A stretch of DNA of 64,000 nt from a phage (GCA_018175075.1 GCA_018175075.1_4100.1); one strand, 5' to 3'; numbered from the stretch's first letter, positions 5,864 to 60,870 are shown. Notes: a model not told the origin generated them from the sequence alone. Program-made: numbers and translations.

Positions 5864-6055
5864 ATGTTGATTTATCAAAGTGATAATATTCGTGTTATGC
5901 AGCATCCCTACTTACAAATCTTTGATGTGCAGCAGTATATGGAAGGTGATGACCCAAGAACCTATGGTCGTAAGTATGATTACTTCACTGTAAAGCAGTG
6001 TAATAATATTAACGAAGTACGACAATTAGTTCAAGAACTTCAAAACAAAGGTTGA
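5864..6055 (+). CDS. hypothetical protein
   Basis: track ORF starts at GTG 5810 inside upstream gene; ATG 5864 has AAGGA RBS. Confidence 0.5.
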   Translation: MLIYQSDNIRVMQHPYLQIFDVQQYMEGDDPRTYGRKYDYFTVKQCNNINEVRQLVQELQNKG

Positions 6056-6076
6056 CTTCGGTCAGCCTTTTTTGTT
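6047..6076 (+). terminator. intrinsic terminator, UUCG tetraloop, with embedded TTGACT
   Basis: GGTTGAC-TTCG-GTCAGCC followed by T6. Confidence 0.7.
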
Positions 6077-6109
6077 ATAATTCTCTTAATAAATTAGAGG
6101 ATTTTAATT

Positions 6110-6550
6110 ATGTATGTATATCGTTTTGAACTTAAATTTAGTTACATTGAACCTAACTTAGATCCTGCACGAACTGTAGGTCCGTTTGCACGGTATTCAA
6201 CCAGATACAGTACTAAAAATGGATTTGACCGTTTGCTCATGACTACACCTTCTCAATTCCAACCTGAACCAACTGAGGATGGGATCTATTCAATCAAAAG
6301 TGGATGGGTATTTGGCTGTCAAAGTTTGAAAGATTTGTTCAGATTCTTCACTATGGACTTAGGTAAATTGCATCGTGCTGGGTTTGCTATATCTGTATAT
6401 GAAGTTCCAGACCACCATGTAGACATTGGTCGTAATCAGGTTCAGTACTATTGCGGTAGTGCTAAATTAGTTCGTATCATGTCAGTTAAGGAAGCAAAGG
6501 ATGAGTTCCGACAAAGTAAAAGAGAAACACATGAGGTAATATATGGATAA
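6110..6550 (+). CDS. hypothetical protein
   Basis: 146-aa ORF, GAGG RBS. Confidence 0.6.
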   Translation: MYVYRFELKFSYIEPNLDPARTVGPFARYSTRYSTKNGFDRLLMTTPSQFQPEPTEDGIYSIKSGWVFGCQSLKDLFRFFTMDLGKLHRAGFAISVYEVPDHHVDIGRNQVQYYCGSAKLVRIMSVKEAKDEFRQSKRETHEVIYG

Positions 6551-6887
6551 AACTCAAATAGAATTAAAGAAATTTGTTTCATTCTATCTTCCTGATGACC
6601 CACGTAATTCACAAAAAGATATTGAATATTATAATATCCTATCTAAACAGTTAATGAGAAAGTTTCAACAGTGTTTAACTATATTCAATACAGATGGAAG
6701 ACGTAGATACCGAATCGTTTCAATGAATGATGAAAACGCAAATTTCTTTGATTACGATGTGGTTTTTAGAGCATATAATGATGATCGTATAAAATTAAAT
6801 TATGATCAAATTATACTTGACCTGAATGTTATATGTGTTATAATCACTCACGTAGCCGAACTTAATGGTTTTAAAGAATGGTATTGA
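6543..6887 (+). CDS. hypothetical protein
   Basis: 114-aa ORF. Confidence 0.55.
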   Translation: MDKTQIELKKFVSFYLPDDPRNSQKDIEYYNILSKQLMRKFQQCLTIFNTDGRRRYRIVSMNDENANFFDYDVVFRAYNDDRIKLNYDQIILDLNVICVIITHVAELNGFKEWY

Positions 6888-6901
6888 ATAGAGGATAACA
6901 T

Positions 6902-7168
6902 ATGAAGCTTAAATTACAATATAATGGATTTACTTTACGTAATGATACTGAATTTATTAATCGTTCTCCTGGTGCTGAACTGTTTTTACGAGAGATGAAC
7001 ATTCCTTTCATCATTACTACAGTGGGCGACCGTGAAGTTCTACAATACGCAGAGCATCCGATCATTGATGTTCCTTGGTACTCTGAGCATATGTACATGG
7101 ATATGGCACGTCGCTACAACTGTAAGTTCGTAGTTGAAGGTGATAAAATTACAGTCGAATTTAAATAA
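6902..7168 (+). CDS. hypothetical protein
   Basis: 88 aa, GAGGA RBS. Confidence 0.6.
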   Translation: MKLKLQYNGFTLRNDTEFINRSPGAELFLREMNIPFIITTVGDREVLQYAEHPIIDVPWYSEHMYMDMARRYNCKFVVEGDKITVEFK

Positions 7169-7179
7169 GGTAAATTAAA

Positions 7180-7473
7180 ATGATCAGTACTTCAGTTAAT
7201 GAAAGCATCGTCGCTGACGTAGAAATGGTTAAAGAATGTGCAGATGAAACTCTTCGTGATATGTACATTAATGATTTAATTACTGAATACGGTAGTCGTG
7301 GTGTACACGAATTTATTCGTTTAAGTGGAGAGTTGATGAAAAATCGAATTCGTATGAAGCTTAACGTACATCCAAAAGCATGGGCATTTACATTAAAATA
7401 CGCAGAAGATATTGTTAATTTGCGTCGAACTGAAGTATATGAACGTTTGCACAATGGTATGTTAGATAAATGA
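7180..7473 (+). CDS. hypothetical protein
   Basis: 97-aa ORF. Confidence 0.55.
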   Translation: MISTSVNESIVADVEMVKECADETLRDMYINDLITEYGSRGVHEFIRLSGELMKNRIRMKLNVHPKAWAFTLKYAEDIVNLRRTEVYERLHNGMLDK

Positions 7474-7483
7474 TTGTAAAATA

Positions 7484-7513
7484 GGAATTCTTAAATGAAT
7501 TCCTTTTTGTTTA
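7484..7513 (+). terminator. intrinsic terminator
   Basis: hairpin AGGAATTC..GAATTCCT followed by TTTTTGTTT. Confidence 0.65.
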
Positions 7514-7525
7514 TAAGGTATAGTA

Positions 7526-7747
7526 ATGAAATATATAGTACTTGTACTGATATTATTCAGTACTGTTGTAAGTGCTAAACAAAAAGAATATGTTAAATGT
7601 ATAAATTATGAAGAGAAATATGTTGAAACATATAAAAAAAGTATAATTAAAAACGTTTCGATTACTAACAGAGCAACAATCATTGTACTTAAAAATGGGT
7701 TAATTATGCTATATAAACCACACGTTAAATGTGAAATTATTAATTGA
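7526..7747 (+). CDS. secreted small protein
   Basis: signal MKYIVLVLILFSTVVSA. Confidence 0.55.
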   Translation: MKYIVLVLILFSTVVSAKQKEYVKCINYEEKYVETYKKSIIKNVSITNRATIIVLKNGLIMLYKPHVKCEIIN

Positions 7748-7754
7748 GGAAATT

Positions 7755-8327
7755 ATGAATCGTAAAGGTCGTTTTAAAGTATCAAAAAAGAACAAAAGTT
7801 CTAGGTTTAAACCTATTGTTTTAACAGTTAAATCTAACAAAGATTTAACTGCACTTAGTAAAAAGATAATTTCATCTAAGATTGAAGTATCATACGTAAA
7901 TTCATTAAAATATATGAATGTCAAACCACTGGACCAACTCATTTCACTTATATTTGAACGTAATGATTTTGAGATATCAGTAGATGATTATAGAGCCTAT
8001 AATGCTGGTTTCATTAATGTTACTTGTAATAAAAAACTAACTGAGTTGGAAAATTTGTCATGTATAATAAATCTAGATAAAGGTGTTGTGAAGTACCATT
8101 TTGTACATTTCACTAATATCAATAATGGAATGGGTGTACAATCCAGACCTATAGTGCCTACGTGTGATGTTACTAAATTAGCAAAGCTCAATGATGAAGA
8201 ATATTTTCAAGAAAGCATTGTAACTGAGCATTTAGATGATATAATAGCTACTTACAAAGAATGCATATGGGTGTTGAATGCTATAAAACCTAAATTGTGT
8301 TTAATGAATATTGTTCGTGATTTATGA
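7755..8327 (+). CDS. hypothetical protein
   Basis: ATG 7755 with GAGGA RBS (in frame with track ORF 7731). Confidence 0.6.
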   Translation: MNRKGRFKVSKKNKSSRFKPIVLTVKSNKDLTALSKKIISSKIEVSYVNSLKYMNVKPLDQLISLIFERNDFEISVDDYRAYNAGFINVTCNKKLTELENLSCIINLDKGVVKYHFVHFTNINNGMGVQSRPIVPTCDVTKLAKLNDEEYFQESIVTEHLDDIIATYKECIWVLNAIKPKLCLMNIVRDL

Positions 8328-8340
8328 ATGGGGAATCGTA

Positions 8341-9286: not shown

Positions 9287-9319
9287 AAGGGTTGACTAAG
9301 GTCAGCCCTTTGTTGTATC
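9287..9319 (+). terminator. intrinsic terminator
   Basis: GGGTTGACTAAGGTCAGCCC followed by T-run. Confidence 0.65.
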
Positions 9320-9350
9320 ATAACTTCTCAATATAACTGAGGTATCATAT

Positions 9351-9464
9351 ATGCAAGGTTTGAAATTTGTAGTTGCTGCACTCATCGCTGCTGTTGTAGT
9401 GGGTACAGTATGTTATTCAATTGACACCTATATCAATACACCTAGTGTTGAACAAACCAAATAA
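9351..9464 (+). CDS. small membrane peptide
   Basis: 37-aa ORF below track cutoff; GAGG RBS; one TM segment. Confidence 0.3.
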   Translation: MQGLKFVVAALIAAVVVGTVCYSIDTYINTPSVEQTK

Positions 9465-9472
9465 GGGATATC

Positions 9473-9736
9473 ATGGCTGAAACATTATCACTATATGCGT
9501 TAGTACTGTTATTTGTCGGATTTCTTCCCGCACTCATTACAGCCATTCGTGTTGTTAAACATGAAGCTGCATTGATTGTATGTAGTATTGGGTCGAACAT
9601 TCTATTGTATTTCTTTTTGACAAATACTATTGTACTGTTTGCTTTCTTTATCATGATTCTGTGGGTACTTGTAATTCTCGGATTCTTCATTTGGTCATTG
9701 GTTGATCCTAAGAAAAAATCAGGAGAAGTGAAATGA
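9473..9736 (+). CDS. membrane protein
   Basis: 87 aa, AAGGGA RBS, two or three TM segments. Confidence 0.55.
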   Translation: MAETLSLYALVLLFVGFLPALITAIRVVKHEAALIVCSIGSNILLYFFLTNTIVLFAFFIMILWVLVILGFFIWSLVDPKKKSGEVK

Positions 9737-10029
9737 AATTAATTATAGCAATGATAATGTGTTTGGCTTTCCCTGTACTGGCTACTCCTAATCTGGACTG
9801 CACACTGTTGCGTTCAGATGGTGACACACTTGAAATCAACACATATGAACTCTTTGGTCCAAGTGTAGTGGAGAATGAAACCACCTACAATTTCAAAGCT
9901 ATTGACTTTGAAGGTAATGTTCCAGTACTAACTACAATGACTATTGACAAAACTACTTTACTCGGACGAATCACCACACAACGCGGAGAAAGTAAAACAT
10001 TCACAGCGAAAGCTGACTGTAACTACTAA
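9733..10029 (+). CDS. secreted protein (signal peptide)
   Basis: signal MKLIIAMIMCLAFPVLATP. Confidence 0.55.
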   Translation: MKLIIAMIMCLAFPVLATPNLDCTLLRSDGDTLEINTYELFGPSVVENETTYNFKAIDFEGNVPVLTTMTIDKTTLLGRITTQRGESKTFTAKADCNY

Positions 10030-10049
10030 TGGTATAGTACAGTGAAAAT

Positions 10050-10073
10050 AGGGTTGACTTCGGTCAACCTTTA
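10050..10073 (+). terminator. intrinsic terminator (UUCG loop)
   Basis: GGGTTGAC-TTCG-GTCAACCTTT. Confidence 0.55.
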
Positions 10074-10079
10074 TATATA

Positions 10080-10622
10080 ATGGAAGAAATAAACATGGAA
10101 CGTTGGAAATTAATTCCTGATTATGACTATTCAATTTCTGATCATGGAAGAGTAAGAAACGAACAAACTGGATATATAAGTTGTGGATTTAAAAATAAAG
10201 ATGGGTATGTGAAGGTCGATTTGTATCGCAATTCTGTGAAAAATAGAAAGGCGATTCATCGACTAGTAGCTGAAGCATTTTTACCACCACCCACACAGAA
10301 ACAGTTACAGTGGGCGAGTAGAACAAAGAAAAAAGTTGTTCACATAAACCATAAAGATTGTAATAGAAGTAACAATCACTATTTGAATTTGGAATGGAAC
10401 ACAGCATCTGAAAACGTACTATATTCTTATTCACATGGTAACGCAACAACTAATCGTGGTGCTGCTGTGTTGACATGGGAAATTGTAAGAGAAATAAGAA
10501 AAGATTATAATGATAATTATAATGATGTGATAGAATATGCACGAGAAAATTGTAATAAATACCGTGTATGTAAAAAAACAATACGTCGTATTTTATACAA
10601 TCAAACATGGATAGAGGATTAA
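10080..10622 (+). CDS. HNH homing endonuclease (NUMOD4 + HNH_3 type)
   Basis: N-terminal WKLIPDYDYSISDHGRVRN, AIHRLVAEAF, and HINHKDCNRSNNHYLNLEW HNH motif. Confidence 0.85.
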   Translation: MEEINMERWKLIPDYDYSISDHGRVRNEQTGYISCGFKNKDGYVKVDLYRNSVKNRKAIHRLVAEAFLPPPTQKQLQWASRTKKKVVHINHKDCNRSNNHYLNLEWNTASENVLYSYSHGNATTNRGAAVLTWEIVREIRKDYNDNYNDVIEYARENCNKYRVCKKTIRRILYNQTWIED

Positions 10623-10626
10623 AAAT

Positions 10627-11886
10627 ATGCCACAAGATAATGGGGATATGAAACATCGTAATGGTGGACTAGTACAACACTCGGATAAATGGGCCGACCG
10701 AAATCGTCGCAAAAATAGTTATCAAGCAGGACAAGGTTCACGTGGTTCCAGAAACCAAGGAACGGGACTTGCTGGTAAGGCAAACGCAGAAGCAGGTGAA
10801 GTTAAGAGTACTGAGAACATGACTGAGCTAGAAAAGCTACGTTATGTTAATTCATTGGGACTTCTTAATGCTACACAAAAACAACGTCTAGCTGATATGG
10901 AACGTGAAGAAAAAGAAAAGTCTGCTCCTGCGAAAGAAGAACCAAAACAAGAAGCACCAAAGGCGGTTAACCCTGTCAAAGAACTGTCTGATAAGTTAGG
11001 TAAGATTTTTGCTAATAAACCACAACTTATCCAAGGTATTGTGAAAGAATTGCAATCTGTACCTAAAGAAGAATTAAAAGTCAAAGCACAAGCTGTACTT
11101 GATGCAATGAGTGGAAATACCAGTACTGAACCAACTGAAGTATTCAGTACTATAATGCGTGCACTTGAAGGTACGCAACAAGGTGATGTGCCTGCACAAG
11201 AGGAAGTAAGTCTTGAAAGCGTACTTAAAACATTTGATAGTATTGGTAAAGAAGACCGTGCTAATGCTCAACAAGTTAAGAATGTACTAGCTAAGTTAGA
11301 AAACCGTCTGGAAGGTAAAGACGATAAGATTAAATTAGTATCTGATGCAGTTAACGATGCACTTAAATCTTATGTACAAGGTGAAAAGAGTCGTTTTGTA
11401 ACTGCAATGGATGCTGCATTCAATACTATGAAAAAGTATGAAGCTGATCATGGTGAGAAGGTTACACGAGATGGTTATCTGATGCGTGATGATGAAGAAG
11501 GTGCAGTAGAACAGAATGATGTTCATTCAGACGAAGAAATTGATGACATGGAAGCTGAACTGTCACAAGACCGCCAAATGACTGAAAAATCCCATAACGA
11601 ACTACAGAAATTAATGCAATGGGTTGCAGATGTTGGTGAAAAAGCTGGTGCTGATAAGAAGAGTATAAACCGAAATCTTAGTTGGATTAAAGATAAAGTT
11701 GGTAACAACGCTCGTAAACTACAAAAAGCGTGGACTGATGTAGTGAATGGTGCTGTTGACATTGATGTTGAATCCGGTGAGGCATATGATTATGCATTGA
11801 CTACACTTGATGACTCTTTCCGTGATTACGAAAATGGAAATGTAACTCCTTGGGAAAAGGATATCATGAGCAAATACGGTAAATGA
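10627..11886 (+). CDS. hypothetical acidic, Lys/Glu-rich protein
   Basis: 419-aa ORF; likely helical/coiled; shares SLGLL motif with 8900 gene. Confidence 0.75.
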   Translation: MPQDNGDMKHRNGGLVQHSDKWADRNRRKNSYQAGQGSRGSRNQGTGLAGKANAEAGEVKSTENMTELEKLRYVNSLGLLNATQKQRLADMEREEKEKSAPAKEEPKQEAPKAVNPVKELSDKLGKIFANKPQLIQGIVKELQSVPKEELKVKAQAVLDAMSGNTSTEPTEVFSTIMRALEGTQQGDVPAQEEVSLESVLKTFDSIGKEDRANAQQVKNVLAKLENRLEGKDDKIKLVSDAVNDALKSYVQGEKSRFVTAMDAAFNTMKKYEADHGEKVTRDGYLMRDDEEGAVEQNDVHSDEEIDDMEAELSQDRQMTEKSHNELQKLMQWVADVGEKAGADKKSINRNLSWIKDKVGNNARKLQKAWTDVVNGAVDIDVESGEAYDYALTTLDDSFRDYENGNVTPWEKDIMSKYGK

Positions 11887-11895
11887 TAAAACAAA

Positions 11896-11924
11896 AGGTT
11901 GACTTCGGTCAGCCTTTTTTTTGT
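11896..11924 (+). terminator. intrinsic terminator (UUCG loop)
   Basis: GGTTGAC-TTCG-GTCAGCC followed by T8. Confidence 0.7.
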
Positions 11925-11958: not shown

Positions 11959-12210
11959 ATGAAAAAATATATTATATTTGGAATTGTATTATTTTCCAGT
12001 ACTGCTTATGGTGCAGATTATCATTGCTCCGTAGCAAGGCAGGATTTCAGAAATGGGGAGTTCTATACTACCTCATACACAAAAGGAATAATACACGACA
12101 CCGACAGAACTATTGGATTTAATGTGTTTGACAACAAAGATTCATATACTTCAGGTATACTATCTGAGCATAAGACTGATGTAATGGGAATAGAAAAAGA
12201 GTTCCGGTGA
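11959..12210 (+). CDS. secreted protein (signal peptide)
   Basis: ATG 11959 gives MKKYIIFGIVLFSSTAYGADY; track start 11899 lies in the terminator. Confidence 0.55.
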   Translation: MKKYIIFGIVLFSSTAYGADYHCSVARQDFRNGEFYTTSYTKGIIHDTDRTIGFNVFDNKDSYTSGILSEHKTDVMGIEKEFR

Positions 12211-12220
12211 TTCAGTAGTA

Positions 12221-12544
12221 ATGTGCAATGACATTGAAAGTACTAAAACAATTTATTATAATAATGAACGTAACTATCGTTTTCATAATTTAACCACAAA
12301 TAAAAGTTTACTATTTTACAATTGTAAAGAAGTAATACTCCCATCAGACAATAGCTGTACTCCAACTAATCAACCCCCAGCACAATGTAATACTCCCTCT
12401 GAACCTGATAAAAATAAAAAAGACAAAGATAAAGATAAAAAAGAAGACAAAAAACCTTTAAAAGATAAAAAGAAAGATAAAAAACCTAATCCGTTTAAAA
12501 ATAATAAACCAGCACAACCCGATATGACATGTAAAATAAAATAA
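12221..12544 (+). CDS. hypothetical protein with Lys/Asp-rich low-complexity tail
   Basis: 107 aa; KDKDKDKKEDKK repeat. Confidence 0.45.
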   Translation: MCNDIESTKTIYYNNERNYRFHNLTTNKSLLFYNCKEVILPSDNSCTPTNQPPAQCNTPSEPDKNKKDKDKDKKEDKKPLKDKKKDKKPNPFKNNKPAQPDMTCKIK

Positions 12545-12553
12545 GGATATATA

Positions 12554-12973
12554 ATGAAAAAGATTTTTTTAAGTATTATTTTAGTACTTTTTAGTTTTAA
12601 TGTATATGCAGCAGATGCTAAACAGGTTGCAAATACAGTAAAAGATGTTATAGTAGATAATGCTCCTACATTAGAGGAAATTGGGGTAAAAACTTGTGAT
12701 ATAGTAATATATAATTTAGTTAATGATGAACGAGTTATGTTGAATACGTATGAACAAGTAGTCCCATTGGTTGAATCTGGTGATGCTTTTAGCTTTACAT
12801 ATAAAGTTAAATTAACAGGAGGGGTTGAAGTTAATCTTGACATTGATACCGCTTCAGTACTAAAAGATAAACTAGGATATGTGTTCAATCGTATTCGTGA
12901 AGAAGGTCATCTTAAGTATGTTTATGAAAGTAAAATACTAAAACGTGCAATAGTTATAGAAAACTGTAAATGA
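12554..12973 (+). CDS. secreted protein (signal peptide)
   Basis: signal MKKIFLSIILVLFSFNVYAADA; AAGGA RBS. Confidence 0.6.
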   Translation: MKKIFLSIILVLFSFNVYAADAKQVANTVKDVIVDNAPTLEEIGVKTCDIVIYNLVNDERVMLNTYEQVVPLVESGDAFSFTYKVKLTGGVEVNLDIDTASVLKDKLGYVFNRIREEGHLKYVYESKILKRAIVIENCK

Positions 12974-12979
12974 TAATAA

Positions 12980-13007
12980 AAGGGTTGACTTCGGTCAGCC
13001 TTTTTTG
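12980..13007 (+). terminator. intrinsic terminator (UUCG loop)
   Basis: GGGTTGAC-TTCG-GTCAGCC followed by T6. Confidence 0.7.
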
Positions 13008-13042
13008 TTATGATGTTGGTATTAACTACAGAGGATAAAGTA

Positions 13043-13684
13043 ATGACTAAGCAAGACATATTCAAAACTTTAATTGACATTTTGCGTCCATCAAAAACTC
13101 GTTGTGCGATGGAGTTTGATATTCCTTATGCTGAACGCGTAATCTTTCCACAAGTTAAAGCTGCTGGACTTACTTTGCTTGGAATGGGGATGTACTCTGT
13201 AGTAGTTGAACATAAAAACTATCATGGACGTGCATTTAAAGTAACCACTTCACGCTGGGATGGTTTTCGTGCTTATGCAAAGTACTGCATTGAAAACGCA
13301 GGAACCAAGTTTCTTCCAGTGATCTACAGTGCCAACGAACAAGGAAACTTTGGATGGTATGAGATGGACAAGTACTATCCTATAATTAAACAAAAAAATA
13401 ATTATGATGACTTTGTTAGTACTAAAATTGGAGATTTATATTCTTATGCACATGCTGGTCAGTACGCTACTTCAGTGAATGATATGCGTGGAAATTCTGA
13501 AGAGATTGCTATTGCAACGGTCGCTGCTAACATCATGAAAGAGTTTCACGGGCGTTTTGTACCAGACATTCATTCAAGTAATGTGATGATGGATAAAGAT
13601 GGCAATGTATTCATTACTGATCCTCTTTCGTGTGATGTACGTAGAGAAATACCAGTTACTGAAGAAGATCCAGTTTTTTATTGA
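13043..13684 (+). CDS. putative atypical protein-kinase-like protein
   Basis: GMGMYSVV Gly loop, AFK lysine, DIHSSNVMM catalytic-loop-like, ITDP; GAGGA RBS at ATG 13043. Confidence 0.4.
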   Translation: MTKQDIFKTLIDILRPSKTRCAMEFDIPYAERVIFPQVKAAGLTLLGMGMYSVVVEHKNYHGRAFKVTTSRWDGFRAYAKYCIENAGTKFLPVIYSANEQGNFGWYEMDKYYPIIKQKNNYDDFVSTKIGDLYSYAHAGQYATSVNDMRGNSEEIAIATVAANIMKEFHGRFVPDIHSSNVMMDKDGNVFITDPLSCDVRREIPVTEEDPVFY

Positions 13685-13745
13685 CAGAACTGATGTTCTG
13701 GTGTATTCTTAATAAACCATAAAAATTGCGGTAAAGGATAAAATC

Positions 13746-14027
13746 ATGCGTTCATTTGAAAACTTAATAGGTAAGCATCTTTTATCTGAAATTGATGCAG
13801 ACGTTAAAGAATTATCCAAATCAAAAAGTTACATTCATTTGGATGAACTGTTTATTAAGTACGGTGAGATTGGTTTTAAGTCATTATTTGTTTTTACTAT
13901 GAAAGTACATAGTTTAAAGTACTTCGATTTGAGTTCTAAAGATGGTGAACCGAATCTATATTACATGTATTACCTTAAGAACAAAGATGAAGCTAATACA
14001 TTACTCTCTGAATATATATTGGGGTAA
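13746..14027 (+). CDS. hypothetical protein
   Basis: 93-aa ORF. Confidence 0.55.
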   Translation: MRSFENLIGKHLLSEIDADVKELSKSKSYIHLDELFIKYGEIGFKSLFVFTMKVHSLKYFDLSSKDGEPNLYYMYYLKNKDEANTLLSEYILG

Positions 14028-14029
14028 AA

Positions 14030-14368
14030 ATGGAACAATATTTTGAATTAATAAACAAAGTATCATTTTATGTAGTATCTTTGGTTTGGGTGTATTATAT
14101 GTTTTGCTATATTATTGCATTCTTCCGATATACTACTTTATATGAACGTATCTACTATGATGCCCCAATTTCATTCTTGATGTTTTGTGCATGTACGTGG
14201 GGAATATTAGAAGTACTGATATGTGGGTATAGTACTGATGAATTAAATCTGGTATCGGTGTTGACTGGGTTTTCATTTGTTGTTATGATAGCTGCCGTTC
14301 CAGTATGGTTGTTCTTTGGACTAGTTCATCGCATTGATATATGGCGTTCTAATATCCCTGAAAAGTAA
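14030..14368 (+). CDS. small multi-TM membrane protein (paralog family M)
   Basis: hydrophobic; C-terminal RSNIPEK tail. Confidence 0.55.
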   Translation: MEQYFELINKVSFYVVSLVWVYYMFCYIIAFFRYTTLYERIYYDAPISFLMFCACTWGILEVLICGYSTDELNLVSVLTGFSFVVMIAAVPVWLFFGLVHRIDIWRSNIPEK

Positions 14369-14377
14369 GGATTGGAA

Positions 14378-14719
14378 ATGATTTATTACACTAACATGTT
14401 TGCCTATGCTGTTGCTTGCATTTACATTGTTTACTTCTTATTCGGTGGAGTACTGTGCTTCTTTAAGTACAAAACGTTGTTCAACCGAATGTACCCAAAT
14501 CATCCAATTGTAGTTGTACTTTTGATTCTTTCAGTTTCTCAAATAATCGTTGAAACTACAATGGGTATCAGTAGTGTACATTATAGTTTTGGCACTATAG
14601 TAATTATTACTATGCTTATTGCATACATTTTAGTACTTGGATATGGTATCTTTGGTAATATTGGTATGAAAATGTATCATCGAATTAAAACATTACGTGA
14701 TAATCTACCGGAGCGTTGA
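14378..14719 (+). CDS. small multi-TM membrane protein (family M)
   Basis: ATG 14378 with AAGGA RBS (track used TTG 14372); tail RDNLPER. Confidence 0.55.
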   Translation: MIYYTNMFAYAVACIYIVYFLFGGVLCFFKYKTLFNRMYPNHPIVVVLLILSVSQIIVETTMGISSVHYSFGTIVIITMLIAYILVLGYGIFGNIGMKMYHRIKTLRDNLPER

Positions 14720-14720
14720 T

Positions 14721-15065
14721 ATGTATAATTTGAACCTAATCTCATATATTATAACAACACTGTTTACATTCTATGCCTTTGTTGGTATAATCCTACTGTA
14801 CTTTAAATTTTATAAAGTGTTTAACCGTTTCTATCCTTCAATGGAGAATGAGTTTTTCTTTGTGTTGTACGTAGGTTACACATTAATGGCTACATGTTTC
14901 ACTGTAGCCGATGGTGTCATCGGCATTAAAACTGATTCCCCAAATGGTAGTACGCTGGTTGCATTTATTCTTACTGGATTCCTTGCAACTTATATTGCCT
15001 TCATTACAACATGGTCAGTGGTTGAATTTCTCTTGCGACTACGAAAGAATATGCCGAATCGATAG
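14721..15065 (+). CDS. small multi-TM membrane protein (family M)
   Basis: ATG 14721 after upstream stop; tail RKNMPNR. Confidence 0.55.
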   Translation: MYNLNLISYIITTLFTFYAFVGIILLYFKFYKVFNRFYPSMENEFFFVLYVGYTLMATCFTVADGVIGIKTDSPNGSTLVAFILTGFLATYIAFITTWSVVEFLLRLRKNMPNR

Positions 15066-15074
15066 GAGACATAT

Positions 15075-15329
15075 ATGTTTGCGTTGCGTAATAAAAACAC
15101 TAAAGAATTATTATGTATTGATACCGTATGGGATTGTGCGGGATCAACTACAGTTCTTGAAGAAGGAACTGGATATTGCGTGTTTGTTGTTCATGATAGG
15201 AATGAACTCGAATTATTACTTGCTGAGTTCAATGCTGGTGGTAATCCTAACAGTACTGAATACCCTGAGATTATCAATCCAGCACCACCAGGCTCTTATG
15301 AAATTCTACAACTGTGGGAGTTGAAGTAA
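15075..15329 (+). CDS. hypothetical protein
   Basis: 84 aa, AGGAG RBS. Confidence 0.55.
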   Translation: MFALRNKNTKELLCIDTVWDCAGSTTVLEEGTGYCVFVVHDRNELELLLAEFNAGGNPNSTEYPEIINPAPPGSYEILQLWELK

Positions 15330-15709
15330 TGCGTCAAATGCACAAAGTAACCGAGCTAAACAAGCGTCTGGTTAAACAATCAATGTTCGAGGATAAAGAG
15401 TCTTATTATAACTTTAAACGTGCTGTAGAGGCTGCTATCCACATTCAGAAGCTTAAAGAACGTGGTTGTATTATTCTGGAAAATGGGTCGGAAGTTGTAA
15501 CGGATGACTTTAGTGTAGCGTTTGATGTTTCACCTGACGGGACGCTATCAATGCCCCGCTTAGGAACTGGAAACATGACTGTTTGGGTTGGCTTCACTAT
15601 GGGGAATGTACCTGGTACTGTGTACGTAGATGATGCGGAATTGAAAGACAGTTTCAAAAACTTATCTTATCTTGAACCACAATACGCACATGAAATGAAT
15701 TTATTTTGA
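15329..15709 (+). CDS. hypothetical protein
   Basis: ATG 15329 overlapping upstream TAA; GGGAG RBS. Confidence 0.55.
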   Translation: MRQMHKVTELNKRLVKQSMFEDKESYYNFKRAVEAAIHIQKLKERGCIILENGSEVVTDDFSVAFDVSPDGTLSMPRLGTGNMTVWVGFTMGNVPGTVYVDDAELKDSFKNLSYLEPQYAHEMNLF

Positions 15710-17887: not shown

Positions 17888-17895
17888 AATAAAAA

Positions 17896-17922
17896 AAGGG
17901 TTGACTTAGGTCGGCCCTTTTG
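17896..17922 (+). terminator. intrinsic terminator
   Basis: GGGTTGACTTAGGTCGGCCC followed by T-run. Confidence 0.65.
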
Positions 17923-17957
17923 CTATTATATCTATATCGAAACGAAGGAGACAAACC

Positions 17958-30037: not shown

Positions 30038-31228
30038 TTACAATTGTCTAGGTGTATCCAGTACATATCTATTTGTACGAGGACCACCATCATCATGCGT
30101 TCCGGTTGAATATATATTTTTCATATCAGCAGTTAGGAAAGTACGATACGAACCGCGATATATTTTAATTTTATCATACATAGAATATGTTATTCCTGAC
30201 GGCAATGGACATGCAGTAAATTTACCAATGGTAACATTAGAACCAACACCTAATGTACCAGCATAACCACTCGCATTTAAACCAGTTGCATATACACCTG
30301 TACTCGTAACTAGTATACTAGATTGTGATGCATATCCAGTATGGATTGAATAATAAGTTCCTGATGGTAATGTAGTACTATTATTCCCTAATACTGCTAG
30401 TGCTGTACTATTCGTAGTGTTATTACCCCATGCCCCATTATTAGCTAATCCACCAACTAGAAACTGACGTGCTCCTGTATTTGGATTCTCCACTAAAGCA
30501 CTGACAGCACCAAATGAACAAACAGTATATTGTAATGTTTTTGTATATGTGGTACTTGGCTTATACAAAGTATATTCATTAAATGGTGTCCATGTGGTAC
30601 TAGTACTTATGCCAGATGTACTACCACCAATATATAAATTATTTTGTGTATCAAAAAACATTGCACAGTAATTTGTTGACTGTATTTGTGCAATATCTAC
30701 ATCTGGTGTTACCGCTTTAACAAATGAACCATCTGATATTTGATAAGTAGTTCCTGTACCATCTGCGAATTGTCTAGCACTATTCCACCCTGTACTCCAT
30801 ATTGTATTATTATCCATTAAGAAAGTAAACCACGTAGTACCTGCATACATCTGTTTAATTGAAGTACTTGAACTTTGTGTGTACAAATTTTCAATATATT
30901 GGTTATAACTTAAAAATGATGTAGTACTAGTTTCTAAACCAATATGACTACCATATCCACAATAAAAATAATTTAAGTCATTATCTTGTACTAACAAAGT
31001 TCCTTGTGTCATCCAGCAATCTTTGACATTTTCTCTAATTAATGTCCACGACCTTACTGCATTATTATTTCCTCTACCAAACTTCCCATAACTATTACTG
31101 CCTCGTGCGTATAGTTGACCGTCGGTATAAAGTACAACAACCTCAGTATCAGTTGGTATTATTTTCTTAATTTGTAGTGGTACAGGCACAATATTCCCAT
31201 AATTCATCATTCTTGCAAAAGGTAACAT
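30038..31228 (-). CDS. RCC1-like beta-propeller repeat protein G8
   Basis: 396 aa, MLPFARMMNYGNIVP. Confidence 0.75.
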   Translation of the reverse strand: MLPFARMMNYGNIVPVPLQIKKIIPTDTEVVVLYTDGQLYARGSNSYGKFGRGNNNAVRSWTLIRENVKDCWMTQGTLLVQDNDLNYFYCGYGSHIGLETSTTSFLSYNQYIENLYTQSSSTSIKQMYAGTTWFTFLMDNNTIWSTGWNSARQFADGTGTTYQISDGSFVKAVTPDVDIAQIQSTNYCAMFFDTQNNLYIGGSTSGISTSTTWTPFNEYTLYKPSTTYTKTLQYTVCSFGAVSALVENPNTGARQFLVGGLANNGAWGNNTTNSTALAVLGNNSTTLPSGTYYSIHTGYASQSSILVTSTGVYATGLNASGYAGTLGVGSNVTIGKFTACPLPSGITYSMYDKIKIYRGSYRTFLTADMKNIYSTGTHDDGGPRTNRYVLDTPRQL

Positions 31229-31299
31229 AATTCCCCTCCTTATTCATTATACTATATTTAATACAAATAAGAAAGCCAGTATCAAGTACTGGCCTATAT
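31229..31299 (-). promoter_or_regulatory. array cassette: terminator hairpin, -10, SD
   Basis: hairpin 31275-31293. Confidence 0.5.
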
Positions 31300-32469: not shown

Positions 32470-32538
32470 ATTTCCTCCTTATTCATTATACTATATTTAA
32501 TACAAATAAGAATGCCAGTATCAAGTACTGGCATTATG
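32470..32538 (-). promoter_or_regulatory. array cassette: terminator hairpin, -10, SD
   Basis: hairpin 32514-32532. Confidence 0.5.
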
Positions 32539-33648: not shown

Positions 33649-33656
33649 ATTCCCTC

Positions 33657-34859: not shown

Positions 34860-34931
34860 ATTTCCCTCCTTTATTCATTATATTATATTTAATCAAAAAT
34901 AAAAGCCAGTACTTGAGTACTGGCATATCAA
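34860..34931 (-). promoter_or_regulatory. array cassette: terminator hairpin, -10, SD
   Basis: hairpin 34905-34924. Confidence 0.5.
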
Positions 34932-36098: not shown

Positions 36099-36200
36099 AT
36101 TTCCTCCTTTATTCATTATATCATATTTACCCCATAAACAAAACCCTTGACAACCTTCCAGTACTGGTGTACTATAGAAGGAATATAAGGAGAACTACAC
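36099..36200. promoter_or_regulatory. divergent promoter region
   Basis: minus side TATAAT + AAAGGAGG for G12; plus side TTGACA 36147-36152 /17/ TACTAT 36170-36175 ahead of family S. Confidence 0.45.
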
Positions 36201-43964: not shown

Positions 43965-43994
43965 GCAGTTTACAAATCTTTACAATTGCCGGTA

Positions 43995-44023
43995 TTGACT
44001 TATTTTGTCAGTACTGGCATAAT
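43995..44023 (+). promoter_or_regulatory. sigma70-like promoter TTGACT/17/CATAAT with no ORF downstream
   Basis: faces minus promoter 44139-44167 across an inverted-repeat element. Confidence 0.4.
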
Positions 44024-47583: not shown

Positions 47584-47607
47584 AGCCCACCTGGTGGGCT
47601 TTTTTGT
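47584..47607 (+). terminator. intrinsic terminator
   Basis: AGCCCACC-T-GGTGGGCT + T6. Confidence 0.7.
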
Positions 47608-48314: not shown

Positions 48315-48341
48315 AGCCCACTTATACAGTGGGCTTTTTTG
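48315..48341 (+). terminator. intrinsic terminator
   Basis: AGCCCAC-TTATACA-GTGGGCT + T6. Confidence 0.7.
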
Positions 48342-51165: not shown

Positions 51166-51300
51166 ATGAATCCTAACGGTATAATTTACAGTACTCCTAA
51201 AACGAAAGCAGACAAGGTAAACGCTAAAAAAGCGAAAGTAAAGGAGTACATCAAGCAAGGCATGACGCGAAAGGCCGCAGTACTTAAAGCTAAAAAATAA
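51166..51300 (+). CDS. possible 44-aa Lys-rich peptide
   Basis: starts right after previous stop; ends before the terminator. Confidence 0.25.
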   Translation: MNPNGIIYSTPKTKADKVNAKKAKVKEYIKQGMTRKAAVLKAKK

Positions 51301-51310
51301 ATGAAAAAAG

Positions 51311-51336
51311 TGGTTGACTTCGGTCAGCCATTTTGC
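51311..51336 (+). terminator. intrinsic terminator (UUCG loop)
   Basis: GGTTGAC-TTCG-GTCAGCC + TTTT. Confidence 0.65.
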
Positions 51337-51435
51337 TATTATATATTCATTGAGAGATAGCTCACTAGCCCACAGGGTGCGGAAGTGTATCTATTATATA
51401 AGTATTGAGTACTGAAAACTATTTTTAAAAAGTAC

Positions 51436-51495
51436 TTGCAAACTATCTCAATAGGCGTATAATGTTTTACATCGAAAGGGGAAACGGTTTCCCCT
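51436..51495 (+). promoter_or_regulatory. A-type promoter/stem-loop cassette
   Basis: TTGCAA/16/TATAAT + AGGGGAAAC-G-GTTTCCCCT. Confidence 0.55.
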
Positions 51496-51514
51496 GGTAA
51501 TAAGGAAACAAATC

Positions 51515-55301: not shown

Positions 55302-55338
55302 AAAGGGATTGACTCCGGTCAGTCCCTTTGCTATTATA
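55302..55338 (+). terminator. intrinsic terminator with embedded promoter hexamers
   Basis: GGGATTGAC-TCCG-GTCAGTCCC + TTTG; TTGACT 55309 / TATTAT 55333. Confidence 0.6.
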
Positions 55339-55427: not shown

Positions 55428-55571
55428 TTGCATTGTACTTAGAATAAAGTATAATGTTTTACATCAGGACGGGGAACGAAACAAGTAACCCCGTTAAGTA
55501 GTCCAGGAGTAAGACATACGAAAAACTCCCCTGATAAAATAGTTTGACAATAGAAAGTAAACGAGTATAAT
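55428..55571 (+). promoter_or_regulatory. tandem promoters flanking a conserved leader (copy 2)
   Basis: TTGCAT 55428/TATAAT 55450; hairpin ACGGGG..CCCCGT; second TTGACA 55544/TATAAT 55566. Confidence 0.5.
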
Positions 55572-57942: not shown

Positions 57943-57973
57943 GATAGTTTCATTAACTCAAGGAGTAAATGCA

Positions 57974-58558: not shown

Positions 58559-58570
58559 AAAAGATTAAAA

Positions 58571-58606
58571 AAGGGATTGACTCCGGTCAGTCCCTTTGCT
58601 ATTATA
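58571..58606 (+). terminator. intrinsic terminator with embedded promoter hexamers
   Basis: GGGATTGAC-TCCG-GTCAGTCCC + TTTG, then TATTAT. Confidence 0.6.
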
Positions 58607-58698: not shown

Positions 58699-58760
58699 TT
58701 GCATTGTACTTAGAATCAAGTATAATGTTTTATATCGAGAGGGGGAAATGGTTCTCCCTG
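58699..58760 (+). promoter_or_regulatory. A-type promoter/stem-loop cassette
   Basis: TTGCAT/16/TATAAT + GGGGGAAATGGTTCTCCC. Confidence 0.55.
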
Positions 58761-58780
58761 GTACATTAAGGAATAAAATC

Positions 58781-59002
58781 ATGACTACAATGACTTGCAT
58801 TCACGCTTCAAACCTGCTTAATGATGCGGCCTTTAATGTTGATTCAGAATATCAATGTTATCGGGATGAAAATAAAAAAGTTTTTGTAGTTGATAATAAT
58901 GGTTTCCATATTGAATTACAATCCGGCTTCACTGGTGTTGATGGTAAATCAGTATGGGGCGTACAGGATGATAAAGGTACATATCATTTTAAACGTAATT
59001 AA
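58781..59002 (+). CDS. hypothetical protein
   Basis: 73 aa from ATG 58781 with AAGGAA RBS; long track ORF upstream is cassette read-through. Confidence 0.55.
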   Translation: MTTMTCIHASNLLNDAAFNVDSEYQCYRDENKKVFVVDNNGFHIELQSGFTGVDGKSVWGVQDDKGTYHFKRN

Positions 59003-59005
59003 GTA

Positions 59006-59064
59006 TTGACAAAGTATATCAGTACTGTATAATAGTTTACATCAAGGGGAGAATAGTTCTCCCC
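59006..59064 (+). promoter_or_regulatory. C-type promoter/stem-loop cassette
   Basis: TTGACA/16/TATAAT + GGGGAGAATAGTTCTCCCC. Confidence 0.55.
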
Positions 59065-59088
59065 ACACCAATAAAAGGAAACAAAATT

Positions 59089-59361
59089 ATGTCCAGCTAC
59101 TCCGCTACTATGATCATTAAAGATATGAACGGTAATCCTACTTCTGCTGGTGGATCATTTGGAAACATTAATTTAGATGGTCGGTTATCCATGCAATCAG
59201 CCATTGATGCAGCTAAAGAAGTTTTTAAGAATGAATGTACTGTAAGCAAGCTGGATTATATGGGATTCGCTATCGAGAAAACTAATCGTTTTGTGAACTA
59301 CAAAAAGCCTATGATGATTGATACTAACCTGAAAGCTAACGAAGTGGAATACTTATTATGA
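59089..59361 (+). CDS. hypothetical protein
   Basis: 90 aa, AAAGGAA RBS. Confidence 0.6.
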   Translation: MSSYSATMIIKDMNGNPTSAGGSFGNINLDGRLSMQSAIDAAKEVFKNECTVSKLDYMGFAIEKTNRFVNYKKPMMIDTNLKANEVEYLL

Positions 59362-59549: not shown

Positions 59550-59556
59550 AAAGTAC

Positions 59557-59618: not shown

Positions 59619-59636
59619 AAGTCCAGGAGATACACC

Positions 59637-59900
59637 ATGAACACTATCGAAATCACTATCAATGCACACGTATACGACAACGTAGTACTGCAAACTACTA
59701 TGACCGCTAATGATACCAGTACTTTGCGGAATACTGTTATTAGTGCCGTATGTGCTGCAATCGGTGATGTCGCCCTGGAAAATGCAAAACACGTAAACGA
59801 TGGTTTCACTATGTGCAAACGTGATAACGCAAAACATATCATCGTGGAAGGTTACGGCGGTGTAGAATTTAATGTTTATATGAAAAAAGTACTTGCATAA
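59637..59900 (+). CDS. hypothetical protein
   Basis: 87 aa from ATG 59637 with CAGGAG RBS. Confidence 0.55.
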   Translation: MNTIEITINAHVYDNVVLQTTMTANDTSTLRNTVISAVCAAIGDVALENAKHVNDGFTMCKRDNAKHIIVEGYGGVEFNVYMKKVLA

Positions 59901-59949
59901 TAACTAAAACAAAGTATAATGTTTTGCATAGGGGGAGATATCCTCCCCC
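59893..59949 (+). promoter_or_regulatory. A-type promoter/stem-loop cassette
   Basis: TTGCAT/16/TATAAT + GGGGGAGATATCCTCCCCC; -35 overlaps upstream stop. Confidence 0.55.
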
Positions 59950-59967
59950 ACTAAAAGGAGTAATAAA

Positions 59968-60192
59968 ATGGCTAACTTTGATGAACTGATGCGGGAAGTA
60001 GCTACCCTGGCAGAAGAGAAGAAATCATTCGATTCTATCTATAACACCGCTCACCGTGATTCAGTACTGGCATGTACTCAGGATCAAAAAGATGAACTAA
60101 TCGCCACCTATCATGAAGCATGGAAGTACTACCGCCAATGGGAGAAAGAAGAAAGCGAGTCTACCATCAACGGCATCAATAATCTAATCTAA
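59968..60192 (+). CDS. hypothetical protein
   Basis: 74 aa, AAGGAG RBS. Confidence 0.6.
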   Translation: MANFDELMREVATLAEEKKSFDSIYNTAHRDSVLACTQDQKDELIATYHEAWKYYRQWEKEESESTINGINNLI

Positions 60193-60211
60193 AAGTTTTA
60201 TTTCAGTACTA

Positions 60212-60240
60212 TTGACATAGCTTGATAGTACTGATGTAAT
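60212..60240 (+). promoter_or_regulatory. B-type promoter cassette
   Basis: TTGACA/17/TGTAAT. Confidence 0.5.
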
Positions 60241-60268
60241 AACTTTACTAACTACAAGGGGAAACATC

Positions 60269-60526
60269 ATGGAACAATTCACACAATATCGGGTAAATCC
60301 TCAAGCTATGGCCTACGTAGAAGACCATAAAACGTTACCAGTACTGCAACCAGTTAAAGGCCATATCTATCGTGGCCTTGCCTGGGATACGGCCCAGGAT
60401 GGATATAAAACCGTCGCAGTGGGGATGTATTGCGGGAATGGTGAATGGTTTGATCCTAACAATCCGATTGCACTTGACAGTACTGAAAAAATGAAATGGG
60501 CCGACTACATCGAAGATATTTCATAA
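60269..60526 (+). CDS. hypothetical protein
   Basis: 85 aa, AAGGGGAA RBS. Confidence 0.6.
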   Translation: MEQFTQYRVNPQAMAYVEDHKTLPVLQPVKGHIYRGLAWDTAQDGYKTVAVGMYCGNGEWFDPNNPIALDSTEKMKWADYIEDIS

Positions 60527-60533
60527 AAACTAT

Positions 60534-60594
60534 TTGACAGTACTAACCAGTAATGTATAATGTTTTACATAGAGCGGGGGAATAGTTCTCCCGC
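60534..60594 (+). promoter_or_regulatory. C-type promoter/stem-loop cassette
   Basis: TTGACA/16/TATAAT + GCGGGGGAATAGTTCTCCCGC. Confidence 0.55.
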
Positions 60595-60616
60595 CAATAG
60601 TTTGGAGTAAAACATT

Positions 60617-60817
60617 ATGTCTATCGCTATCGCCCTGGTTGAAGTACTGAAAGAAGCTAAAGCCAACCTTATCGATGTACAGATTAAGGAATTGCAAAAC
60701 GGCTTAATCGGCTGTACTTGTACCGCTGGCGGTGCGGCAGACTATCGAGAACACGAATCACTCGAATCACTGGTTCGGTATCTTACCATGATCGTTGATG
60801 ATTGGAGAATCATCTAA
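60617..60817 (+). CDS. hypothetical protein
   Basis: 66 aa, GGAG RBS. Confidence 0.55.
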   Translation: MSIAIALVEVLKEAKANLIDVQIKELQNGLIGCTCTAGGAADYREHESLESLVRYLTMIVDDWRII

Positions 60818-60835
60818 CAAAAAAAGAATAAAAAA

Positions 60836-60870
60836 AGGGATTGACTCCGGTCAGTCCCTTTGCTATTATA
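60836..60870 (+). terminator. intrinsic terminator with embedded promoter hexamers
   Basis: GGGATTGAC-TCCG-GTCAGTCCC + TTTG, then TATTAT. Confidence 0.6.

Follow-up and report, generated by a model that had tools for sequence, protein, structure and literature searches.

Repeated stem-loop modules that probably join a terminator to a sigma-70 promoter among the early genes of a RaK2-like Escherichia coli jumbo phage

The stretch of DNA considered here is 64,000 nucleotides of a phage assembly (GCA_018175075.1), analysed in full and referred to as the window, and it contains ten copies of a small intergenic hairpin module in which a putative transcription terminator and a putative promoter occupy the same DNA. 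Over 50–62 kb the window is 94–96% identical to the Asteriusvirus Escherichia jumbo phages Ecwhy_1, CRJP21, G17, fEgEco12, slurp01, and PBECO4/121Q, and the same match is seen over 5–19 kb; by sequence, its source is an Asteriusvirus-type (RaK2-like) E. coli jumbo phage. The window has a G+C content of 31–41% and ~150 small open reading frames (ORFs), and a tRNA/tmRNA scan of it returned zero genes. Genes lie on the + strand at 1–22 kb and 36–64 kb and on the - strand at 22–36 kb, and the right-half region falls inside the direct terminal repeat of relatives with marked genome ends (vB_Ec-M-J, fENko-Kae01, and CBB). The modules are at 6047, 9287, 10050, 11896, 12980, and 17896 in the left half and at 51311, 55302, 58571, and 60836 in the right half, and all are surrounded by hypothetical ORFs of 50–250 aa. 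All are on the coding strand and begin 0–22 nt past the stop codon of the upstream ORF, with the general layout of an A-tract, GGG, TTGAC, a UNCG-type loop, GTCrGCCC, and a T-run.

A search for TTGACTYCGGTCA with up to one mismatch gives eight matches on the + strand (6052, 10054, 11899, 12985, 51314, 55309, 58577, and 60841), compared with 0.14 in shuffled sequences, and a single unrelated one-mismatch match on the - strand, within a coding region. We also built a covariance model on 30 copies from nine phages and used it for an unfiltered search of the entire window, both strands included. It recovers exactly the ten sites, all on the + strand (44.5–73.3 bits, E 3e-8 to 1.5e-15), and its sole other matches are weak antisense ones at the same places; together with the shuffles this census rules out a chance origin of the hairpins. 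The ten are those proposed in a preliminary description, including variants at 9287 (loop TAAG) and 17896 (loop TTAG, with GTCGG in the 3' arm). That description had missed a related element at 43988–44023, and the T-run it attributed to all ten near-identical hairpins is long (6–8 T) at only three, 6047, 11896, and 12980; in the four right-half copies and at 9287 and 17896 it is no more than TTT(T)G. Rfam scans at gathering thresholds (whole window) and at E≤1 (41.8–61.2 kb) gave no match to the hairpins or to the leader element described below, and returned only three weak chance matches.

The promoter parts are similarly regular. At least five of the six TATAAT positions, with A2 and T6 present, are matched 16–18 bp past TTGACT in nine of the ten copies (background 3.2%), and seven have in addition a TG at -15/-14, the TGn motif (background 0.29%). 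The earlier proposal of a -10 at 17–18 bp fails at 11896, which has none, and at 10050 the spacer is 16 bp. Across the window, sites of the form TTGAC-N16-19-TAnnnT number 41 on the + strand and five on the - strand. In the left-half copies an ATG with a Shine-Dalgarno (SD) sequence follows 25–35 nt 3' of the -10; in the right half a leader of ~170–260 nt that holds a second promoter lies between the -10 and the next ATG. At 6047 the TGA within TTGAC (6053–6055) is itself the stop codon of the upstream gene, as it is in the orthologous annotated 121Q gene 191, so that a ribosome stopping at this codon would be positioned over the terminator's 5' arm. At 10050 the T-tract is poor, and the -10 shares bases with the initial ATG of the ORF that follows.

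Terminator quality is uneven among the copies. We scored it with the d value of d'Aubenton-Carafa (1990), and the values are indicative only: d is +23 to +32 at 6047, 11896, and 12980, comparable to the plain terminators at 47584 and 57076, is marginal (+2 to +9) at 9287, 17896, and the four right-half copies, and is negative (-8) at 10050. The first eight nucleotides past the stem include 7–8 T in the three high-scoring copies and 5–6, interrupted, at 9287, 17896, 51311, 55302, 58571, and 60836, and the U-tract of 10050 falls short of that of an intrinsic terminator. There is an apparent trade-off, in that the best promoter geometry (a 17-bp spacer and TGCTATTAT) goes with the shortest U-tract, and the copies with T6–T8 have an 18-bp spacer or no -10. 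Copy 11896, with its long T-run, appears to be solely a terminator. In the right-half copies the -10 begins 5 nt past the stem. Intrinsic termination commonly occurs 7–9 nt past the stem and initiation ~7 nt past the -10, which places the predicted 3' end ~10 bp (about 9–11 bp) upstream of the predicted start. The other terminators of the window (AGCCCAC..GTGGGCT and GGCGGGA..TCCCGCC) are without promoter boxes.

Comparison with other phages separates the two sets of constraints. In an alignment of 30 hand-picked copies from nine phages, with a 12-pair helix, standard pairs occupy 95.3% of cells, compared with 26–63% when the partner is slid by one to three columns, and the picture is the same in the model-found set of 55 copies (94.9% paired). 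In the four outer pairs two-sided compensatory changes are seen in 25 cells, compared with 6.3 in shuffles (0 of 500 as high), for example GGGA/TCCC versus GTAC/GTAC in GAP32/CBB. The five inner pairs, those of TTGAC, change on the 3' arm only, from UA to UG and from GC to GU; a U.G wobble opposite the first T is found in 42 of 53 distinct copies and further wobbles in 12. Folding energies of the cores are -9.4 to -15.0 kcal/mol in the sense orientation and -4.2 to -9.2 kcal/mol in the reverse complement. Since the 3' arm varies only from A to G opposite U and from C to U opposite G, the structure appears to be selected as sense-strand RNA and not as a DNA palindrome.

The promoter positions are nearly invariant in the same material. 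A model search over 13 loci gave 54 sense copies, and counts over 55 sequences from more than nine phage genera are T54 T55 G55 A53 C53 T43 for the -35 and T55 A54 T53 (T/A) (A/C) T54 for the -10. Of the 55 copies, 40 have a G at -14 and 47 have an A at the predicted +1, with a C before it in 36, and the upstream A-tract (alignment columns 5–10) has A in 39–52 copies. This profile is the pattern expected of a sigma-70 promoter overlaid on a base-paired stem, with the 5' arm locked by sigma-70.

A 131-nt query spanning module 55302 and the leader behind it has matches in non-coding DNA across the RaK2-like jumbo clade, including Klebsiella phages RaK2 and K64-1, Cronobacter GAP32, Pectobacterium CBB, Salmonella 7t3 and Munch, Serratia BF, Erwinia pEa_SNUABM, and Hallingskeid. 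Eight fetched loci repeat the order A-tract, GGG, TTGAC, 4-nt loop, GTCrGCCC, T3–6, G(C/T), and TATTAT. A consensus of 41 nt retrieves 212 phage records, and relatives have about 10–16 sites per 350-kb genome. The distribution extends beyond this clade. The exact hairpin GGGTTGAC-TTCG-GTCAGCCC with a -10 follows rIIB in the KVP40-like phage phi-Grn1, and is present in Aeromonas phage 65, in Cronobacter phage CR3 (Vequintavirinae), and, downstream of the DNA polymerase gene, in Brochothrix phage A9 (Herelleviridae), which has a Gram-positive host. The conserved -10, the TG at -14, and the CA at +1 recur at fixed spacing in Straboviridae, RaK2-like phages, Vequintavirinae, and Herelleviridae.

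The closest known elements are those named PeSLs (promoter-early stem-loops), reported by Arbiol et al. (2010) in the T4-like phages RB49 and phi1 as intergenic repeats that combine an AT-rich tract with a consensus sigma-70 promoter and a stem-loop, the latter placed either in the spacer or across one of the two boxes (-35 or -10); lacZ fusions revealed both promoter and terminator activity, and recombination between copies gave indels and mini-circles, the question of homologous or site-specific recombination being left open (PMC2839356). Comeau et al. (2014) extended PeSLs to PST/T4 and nt-1/KVP40, with the nt-1 consensus A3-4G3-loop-C3T3-4 and TTGYVH-N17-TAWWAT (PMC4122927). The nt-1 intergenic spacers at 50–57 kb contain AAAAGGGTTGC-TTCG-GCAGCCCTTTTTTGTTATTCT, AAAAGGGTTGCACTATGCAGCCCTTTTTAGTATTAT, and AAAAAGTGCTTGCACTACGTAAGCACTTTCTGTATTAT, arranged as in the window, and our model matches two of these three spacers (ORF129/130, 38.6 bits, E 4e-6; ORF128/129, 34.1 bits, E 6e-5), both within the published 51–56 kb PeSL series (PMC4122927). 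The window copies share with PeSLs the AT-rich tract, a sigma-70-like promoter within an intergenic repeat, a stable stem-loop overlapping the -35, a setting among plastic regions of small early ORFans, and copies flanking indels between close relatives. The likeness to the nt-1 type is closest, with the -35 in the 5' arm and loop, the T-tract as spacer, and an identical layout. A PeSL carries the SD and start codon of the following gene at its 3' end, an arrangement seen in the left-half copies, and in the right-half copies the long leader with its second promoter intervenes. They differ in belonging to a RaK2-like jumbo phage and not to Straboviridae; in having a single stereotyped form (TTGAC, UNCG loop, U.G wobble, and TGn) where RB49/phi1 have five positional subclasses; and in the fusion of the right-half copies to a clade-specific leader and second promoter. 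Promoter and terminator activity were measured in RB49/phi1 and are predicted for the window copies. Judged in this way, the modules have the PeSL architecture, in a phage group for which it had not previously been written up, and are not a new kind of element.

A bacterial counterpart has also been described. A 2026 preprint on A. baumannii, E. coli, and B. subtilis reports that promoter and terminator overlap in many cases, the stem-loop being the -35 and the T-tract abutting the -10, with a modal distance of 10 bp (within 35 bp) from 3' end to start; a close coupled promoter increases termination, including that of weak U-tract terminators, and E. coli yielded 540 mapped pairs of this type (Fletcher, Grainger et al., bioRxiv 10.64898/2026.08.19.745784). 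The phage modules have the same layout, with stem-loop DNA coinciding with the -35 and the T-tract adjoining the -10, and likewise lie between tandem genes, with ~10 bp from predicted 3' end to start and E. coli RNA polymerase as the presumed reader. The bacterial examples are diverse in sequence and have mapped RNA ends, whereas the phage copies are near-identical repeats, defined by sequence, that also act as recombination repeats. When compared with canonical intrinsic terminators the modules have the usual G+C-rich stem of 7–9 pairs (10–12 with the A-U extension), a 4-nt loop, and a T-run, and are detected by ARNOLD/TransTerm-type scans, although in most copies the U-tract is broken after 3–4 U by the TGn and -10. 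Extra-stable UUCG loops closed by C-G also lie between phage genes in T4, where Tuerk et al. in 1988 reportedly described intercistronic C(UUCG)G hairpins as RNA stability or termination elements without an embedded -35.

Public records treat the two halves of the module separately. The hairpins are annotated as terminators in G17, Munch, and UE-S1, and in GAP32 as 'stem_loop' or terminator with promoters placed elsewhere; the fHe-Yen9-03 record has -35 and -10 signals on one copy, with the -35 box on TTCGGT, which is 5 nt past TTGAC. In the CBB paper 18 RpoD-like promoters and 74 terminators are catalogued as separate features, and the papers on RaK2 and fEgEco12 report no signals of either kind. 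PA5oct, a distant relative, depends on host RNA polymerase with TTGAC/TATAATA promoters. In the literature we found no paper linking Asteriusvirus, RaK2, GAP32, or CBB to composite promoter-terminators, and none with the hairpin or leader sequences in a phage context.

The modules also coincide with sites of gene gain and loss. 121Q has three copies that are identical over ~55 nt (12134, 13416, and 15584 of its locus, L014), which bracket a denV cassette (12134–13416) and a 2.2-kb endonuclease cassette (13416–15584). At this junction the window has a single module, 17896, whose upstream flank is that of the 13416 copy and whose downstream gene is the one that follows 15584 in 121Q, making it an apparent chimera. 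Three window ORFs around 10050 (9394–10678), including an HNH/NUMOD4 endonuclease, are absent from 121Q, which at the equivalent position has a normal module before structural gene 201. Single-gene indels in the right half relative to G17, fEgEco12, and 121Q are flanked by plain-promoter repeats (59001–59101, 55884/56155, and 55586). Because near-identical copies flank unrelated small genes, the modules presumably act as recombination sites for the gain and loss of gene cassettes.

We consider it likely, from the sequence evidence and from these precedents, that most copies are bifunctional in vivo, acting as terminator and sigma-70 promoter in early-region cassettes of the PeSL type. Early in infection the phage would depend on the host sigma-70 RNA polymerase. 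In the RNA of the upstream gene, the G+C-clamped hairpin with its UNCG-type tetraloop and U-tract would form an intrinsic terminator or attenuator and leave a stable 3' end. The same DNA would be read as a promoter with the A-tract at the position of an UP element, TTGAC(T) from the 5' arm and the first loop base as the -35, the 3' arm and T-tract as a 17–18-bp spacer, and TGn with TATTAT/TATAAT as an extended -10, with re-initiation at the conserved CA ~7 nt further on. Given the ~10 bp from the predicted 3' end to the start, a promoter-bound polymerase could help to stop an incoming one, an effect that would offset the brevity of the U-tract in the copies that are best as promoters. In its wobble pair with the first T of TTGAC, the G of the 3' arm would keep the sense hairpin and remove both the mirror-image -35 on the other strand and most of the hairpin stability there, and the device would consequently be one-directional. 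The preliminary idea that one module both terminates and re-initiates transcription is supported in its core by the independent conservation of the hairpin and of the -35, -10, and +1, and by the PeSL and promoter-coupled precedents. It does not extend to 11896, with no -10, or to 10050, which is weak in both respects, and six copies have marginal U-tracts.

Several points weigh against bifunctional modules. Six of the ten copies have only 3–4 U before a G and marginal d values, and d is negative at 10050; one copy lacks a -10; and the GAP32 annotators labelled some copies merely as 'stem_loop'. The window copies are paralogues, and binomial P values computed within the window are overstated. 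In the right half a canonical second promoter ~120 bp downstream would make the first unnecessary for expression of the next gene. We found no transcriptome or 5'/3'-end mapping for RaK2-like phages, so that both activities are inferred. Much of this fits an explanation in which the modules are promoters first, the hairpin being a 3'-end stabiliser, a weak attenuator, or tolerated baggage that most polymerases read through, above all in the right-half copies and in the RaK2/GAP32 copies with CCCTTTG or CCCCTTCTG tails. The short U-tracts, with d marginal or negative in seven of ten copies, GAP32 copies such as GGGGTTGACTTCGGTTAGCCCCTTCTGTATACT that have almost no U-tract, the stem_loop labels, and the near-invariance of the promoter parts all favour it. 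We nevertheless regard it as unlikely, since compensatory and wobble changes maintain the stem in every genus, the stem is always directly past a stop codon with A- and T-tracts on its flanks, the T6–T8 copies score as strong terminators, and copy 11896 (also in 121Q) has kept its hairpin and T8 run without any -10; moreover, promoter-coupled terminators with weak U-tracts do terminate in bacteria.

The opposite simplification, that these are terminators in which TTGACT and TATTAT arose by accident within a repeated hairpin family of AT-rich DNA, agrees with the terminator annotations in G17, Munch, and UE-S1, and -10-like hexamers are indeed common at 35% G+C (12% background at four of six positions). 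It is very hard to reconcile with a TTGAC that is invariant while its pairing partner drifts, with the conservation of T-A-T-x-x-T, TG at -14, and CA at +1 at fixed spacing in 55 copies, with the lack of such boxes at the other window terminators, and with the SD and ATG that follow the left-half -10 by 25–35 nt, and we think it most improbable. A DNA-level role, as an operator for a dimeric protein (TTGAC....GTCAA), a cruciform, or a site-specific recombination site with the transcription signals secondary, might be suggested by the inverted repeat of the core, by the copies at cassette indel junctions, and by the choice between homologous and site-specific recombination that Arbiol et al. 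left open. However, the arms are asymmetric, with the T.G position in 42 of 53 distinct copies, and the wobbles are mismatches in a cruciform and break operator symmetry; the loop and outer stem vary freely while pairing is kept; and the identical element is found in unrelated phages with no shared candidate binding protein. We rejected a protein-binding palindrome or cruciform on the grounds that the arms differ by wobble-only changes, and a DNA-level element in general seems to us highly unlikely.

If most modules are bifunctional, the PeSL terminator-promoter design extends from T4-like to RaK2-like jumbo phages, for which they provide a very clean comparative case. The near-identical 40-bp solution in Vequintavirinae and in a Herelleviridae phage of a Gram-positive host would reflect either convergence on an optimal nesting of the -35 in a UUCG hairpin or cassette traffic between phages. 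Because the records label these sites as terminator only or, in one record, as promoter only, operon maps of these phages would be wrong at them. The modules would explain where early-region cassettes of jumbo phages are gained or lost, could serve as compact one-directional insulator parts readable by E. coli polymerase, and offer natural material for examining whether, as recently claimed, a weak terminator gains strength from a promoter coupled to it.

Coordinates of the modules and associated features are given in Table 1. The ORF that follows module 5 (13010–13684) is the counterpart of a 121Q gene annotated as a protein kinase, and a leader element at 44049 follows the looser relative at 43988–44023.

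Table 1. Hairpin modules and associated features of the window (d, terminator score; bits, covariance-model score; P2, second promoter of a right-half cassette).
Feature	Position	Strand	Hairpin or sequence	Promoter	Scores and remarks
Module 1	6047..6081	+	stem AAAGGTTGAC/GTCAGCCTTT, loop TTCG, T6 run	-35 TTGACT 6052-6057, 18-bp spacer, TGn + TATAAT 6076-6081	core -9.4 kcal/mol, d +24, 61.1 bits; next ORF from 6110
Module 2 (variant)	9287..9321	+	GGGTTGAC-TAAG-GTCAGCCC, then TTTGTTG	TATCAT, 18-bp spacer, without TGn	-12.8 kcal/mol, d +9, 52.6 bits
Module 3 (atypical)	10050..10081	+	perfect palindrome GGTTGAC-TTCG-GTCAACC, tail TTTATATATAAT	16-bp spacer	d -8, 44.5 bits
HNH/NUMOD4 homing-endonuclease ORF	10080-10622				directly 3' of module 10050; Pfam HNH_3, NUMOD4
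Module 4	11893..11922	+	GGTTGAC-TTCG-GTCAGCC, T8 run then TAAATA	no usable -10	d +32, 54.6 bits
Module 5	12980..13014	+	GGGTTGAC-TTCG-GTCAGCC, T6 run	TGn + TATGAT, 18-bp spacer	d +23, 58.3 bits
Module 6 (variant)	17894..17929	+	GGGTTGAC-TTAG-GTCGGCCC, two U.G wobbles	TTTTGC + TATTAT, 17-bp spacer	70.6 bits
Module 7	51307..51342	+	TGGTTGAC-TTCG-GTCAGCCA	TTTTGC + TATTAT, 17-bp spacer	d +2, 73.3 bits; opens regulatory cassette 51290-51514
Module 8	55302..55337	+	GGGATTGAC-TCCG-GTCAGTCCC	TTTGC + TATTAT, 17-bp spacer	-15.0 kcal/mol, d +4, 71.6 bits; G17 record: ARNOLD terminator annotation only
Module 9	58570..58605	+	sequence identical to module 8		71.1 bits
Module 10	60834..60869	+	sequence identical to module 8		73.0 bits
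Eleventh, looser relative	43988..44023	+	GCCGGTATTGAC-TTATTTT-GTCAGTACTGGC	TTGACT in 5' arm, TGG + CATAAT	-20 kcal/mol
P2 of module 7 cassette	51436..51463	+	then hairpin GGGGAAA/TTTCCCC, SD, ATG 51515	TTGCAA-N16-TATAAT	
P2 equivalents	55428-55455 (plus 55544-55571), 58699-58726, 60984-61012				
Leader element	51369..51391	+	CCCACAGGGTGC plus downstream partner GTATCT		~+15 to +35 of predicted transcript from first promoter
Leader copies	starts 44049, 53024, 55359, 58632, 60891	+			
Leader copies	46538, 44117, 41966	-			
Plain promoter examples	4279, 15711, 44330, 51870, 52444, 53557, 54595, 55544, 55884, 56155, 59006, 60534				

The four right-half modules each open a ~230-bp regulatory cassette, and these repeats are 83–88% identical. 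The order is the hairpin with its promoter (P1), a leader with CCCAYNGGGTGC at about +15 to +35, a second promoter, a 5' hairpin, SD, and ATG; the second promoter (P2), TTGCAA/TTGCAT-N16-TATAAT or TTGACA-N17-AATAAT, is ~120 bp downstream of P1. The preliminary view that the re-initiated transcript of the right half runs through an AGCCCAC/GGGTGC element, the leader element of Table 1, is correct as far as it goes, and is incomplete in that the module is just the first part of this cassette with its second promoter. Promoters lacking a hairpin, on either strand, are likewise followed by the element. Transcripts from P2 start with their own hairpin, GGGGAAA...TTTCCCC, just 5' of the SD (51470–51500 and 58733–58765). 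We discarded tandem duplication of whole right-half gene cassettes as an origin, as the first ORFs are unrelated (local alignment scores 23–34) and only the ~230-bp regulatory part is repeated.

We collected 51 distinct leader copies in seven loci (the window and L002–L007), on both strands. A sigma-70-like -10 ends 21–29 nt upstream in 44 of these, and 22 are behind hairpin-type promoters. The core CCCA-Y-N-GGGTG-C (CCCAYNGGGUGC in RNA) is invariant 3' of hairpin-type and plain early promoters alike. A leader hairpin 2–3 nt from the predicted +1, established copy by copy, is present in 33 of 49 copies with highly diverse stems, and pairing of GGGUGC with a downstream GUAUCU occupies 90% of cells, with wobble-type changes only. 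RNAalifold on a MAFFT alignment of the leader gave only a 4-bp CCC/GGG hairpin, and single-sequence folds of the P1 leaders are no more stable than shuffles (z -0.03 to -1.4). The leader is absent from the BF/pEa12 loci and from T4-like controls, and we found no paper describing it or the AGTACT excess noted below. A mini-ORF (SD-like GGGUG, NUG, and a UAU CUA stop) is disfavoured, since 17 of 49 copies lack the start-codon G with pairing potential kept. The element looks like an undescribed structured 5' leader, clade-wide in RaK2-like phages. It is rather unlikely that the leader acts as a cis-acting RNA of a new kind, governing what becomes of transcript or polymerase and forming one regulatory system with the terminator-promoter modules; if so, it might be a put-like processive antiterminator, leader-bearing transcripts ignoring the hairpin terminators met every ~3 kb, or a handle for phage-directed shut-off of early genes.

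The window also has ordinary strong terminators of the form AGCCCAC-loop-GTGGGCT with T5, at 47584–47600 and 48315–48335. These have the same 5' arm (AGCCCAC) as the leader AGCCCAC-N-GGGTGC, which cannot form that stem. Promoter-plus-leader units also occur in convergent pairs, at 43995(+)/44167(-) in the window (~170 bp apart) and near 15539(+)/15607(-) in L002 and L003. Full complementarity of the two transcripts would extend over ~70 nt, and Asteriusvirus and Mimasvirus share this conserved arrangement. Consensus sigma-70 promoters, TTGACA-N16-TATAAT, are dense (approximately one per 300–1000 bp), with very short leaders into a GGGGA-type SD. A third promoter class, TTGACA-N17-TGGCATAAT, has the leader element behind it in every case.

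AGTACT is strongly over-represented, with 292 copies in the window and 21.6 expected (13.5-fold), and AGTACTG is found 270 times compared with 9.6 in shuffles. The palindrome often lies within CAGTACTG (e.g. 320, 15726, 41206, and 44010) and forms part of the spacer of plain promoters (AGTACTGTATAAT). There are 9.6 copies per kb of non-coding and 3.5 per kb of coding DNA, with an excess in both, and the excess is 11–21-fold in every RaK2-like genus sampled (L002–L009), with none in T4-like controls. The segment 40600–42500 has few ORFs and is dense with CAGTACTG and promoters. It falls roughly where the numbering of the CRJP21 and fEgEco12 records begins (coordinate 1), and the junction at a physical genome end or terminal repeat therefore probably lies within the window.

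The - strand region 21924–36116 has ~10 ORFs, mostly of ~370–410 aa with two shorter (245–300 aa), and no hairpin modules among them; similarly placed genes of relatives are annotated as RCC1-like 'regulator of chromosome condensation'. The hexamers CCCGGG, CCATGG, CAGCTG, AGGCCT, AGCGCT, and ACCGGT have zero copies in the whole window, with 2–7 of each expected, and the lack of these six G+C-rich palindromes suggests restriction-site avoidance.

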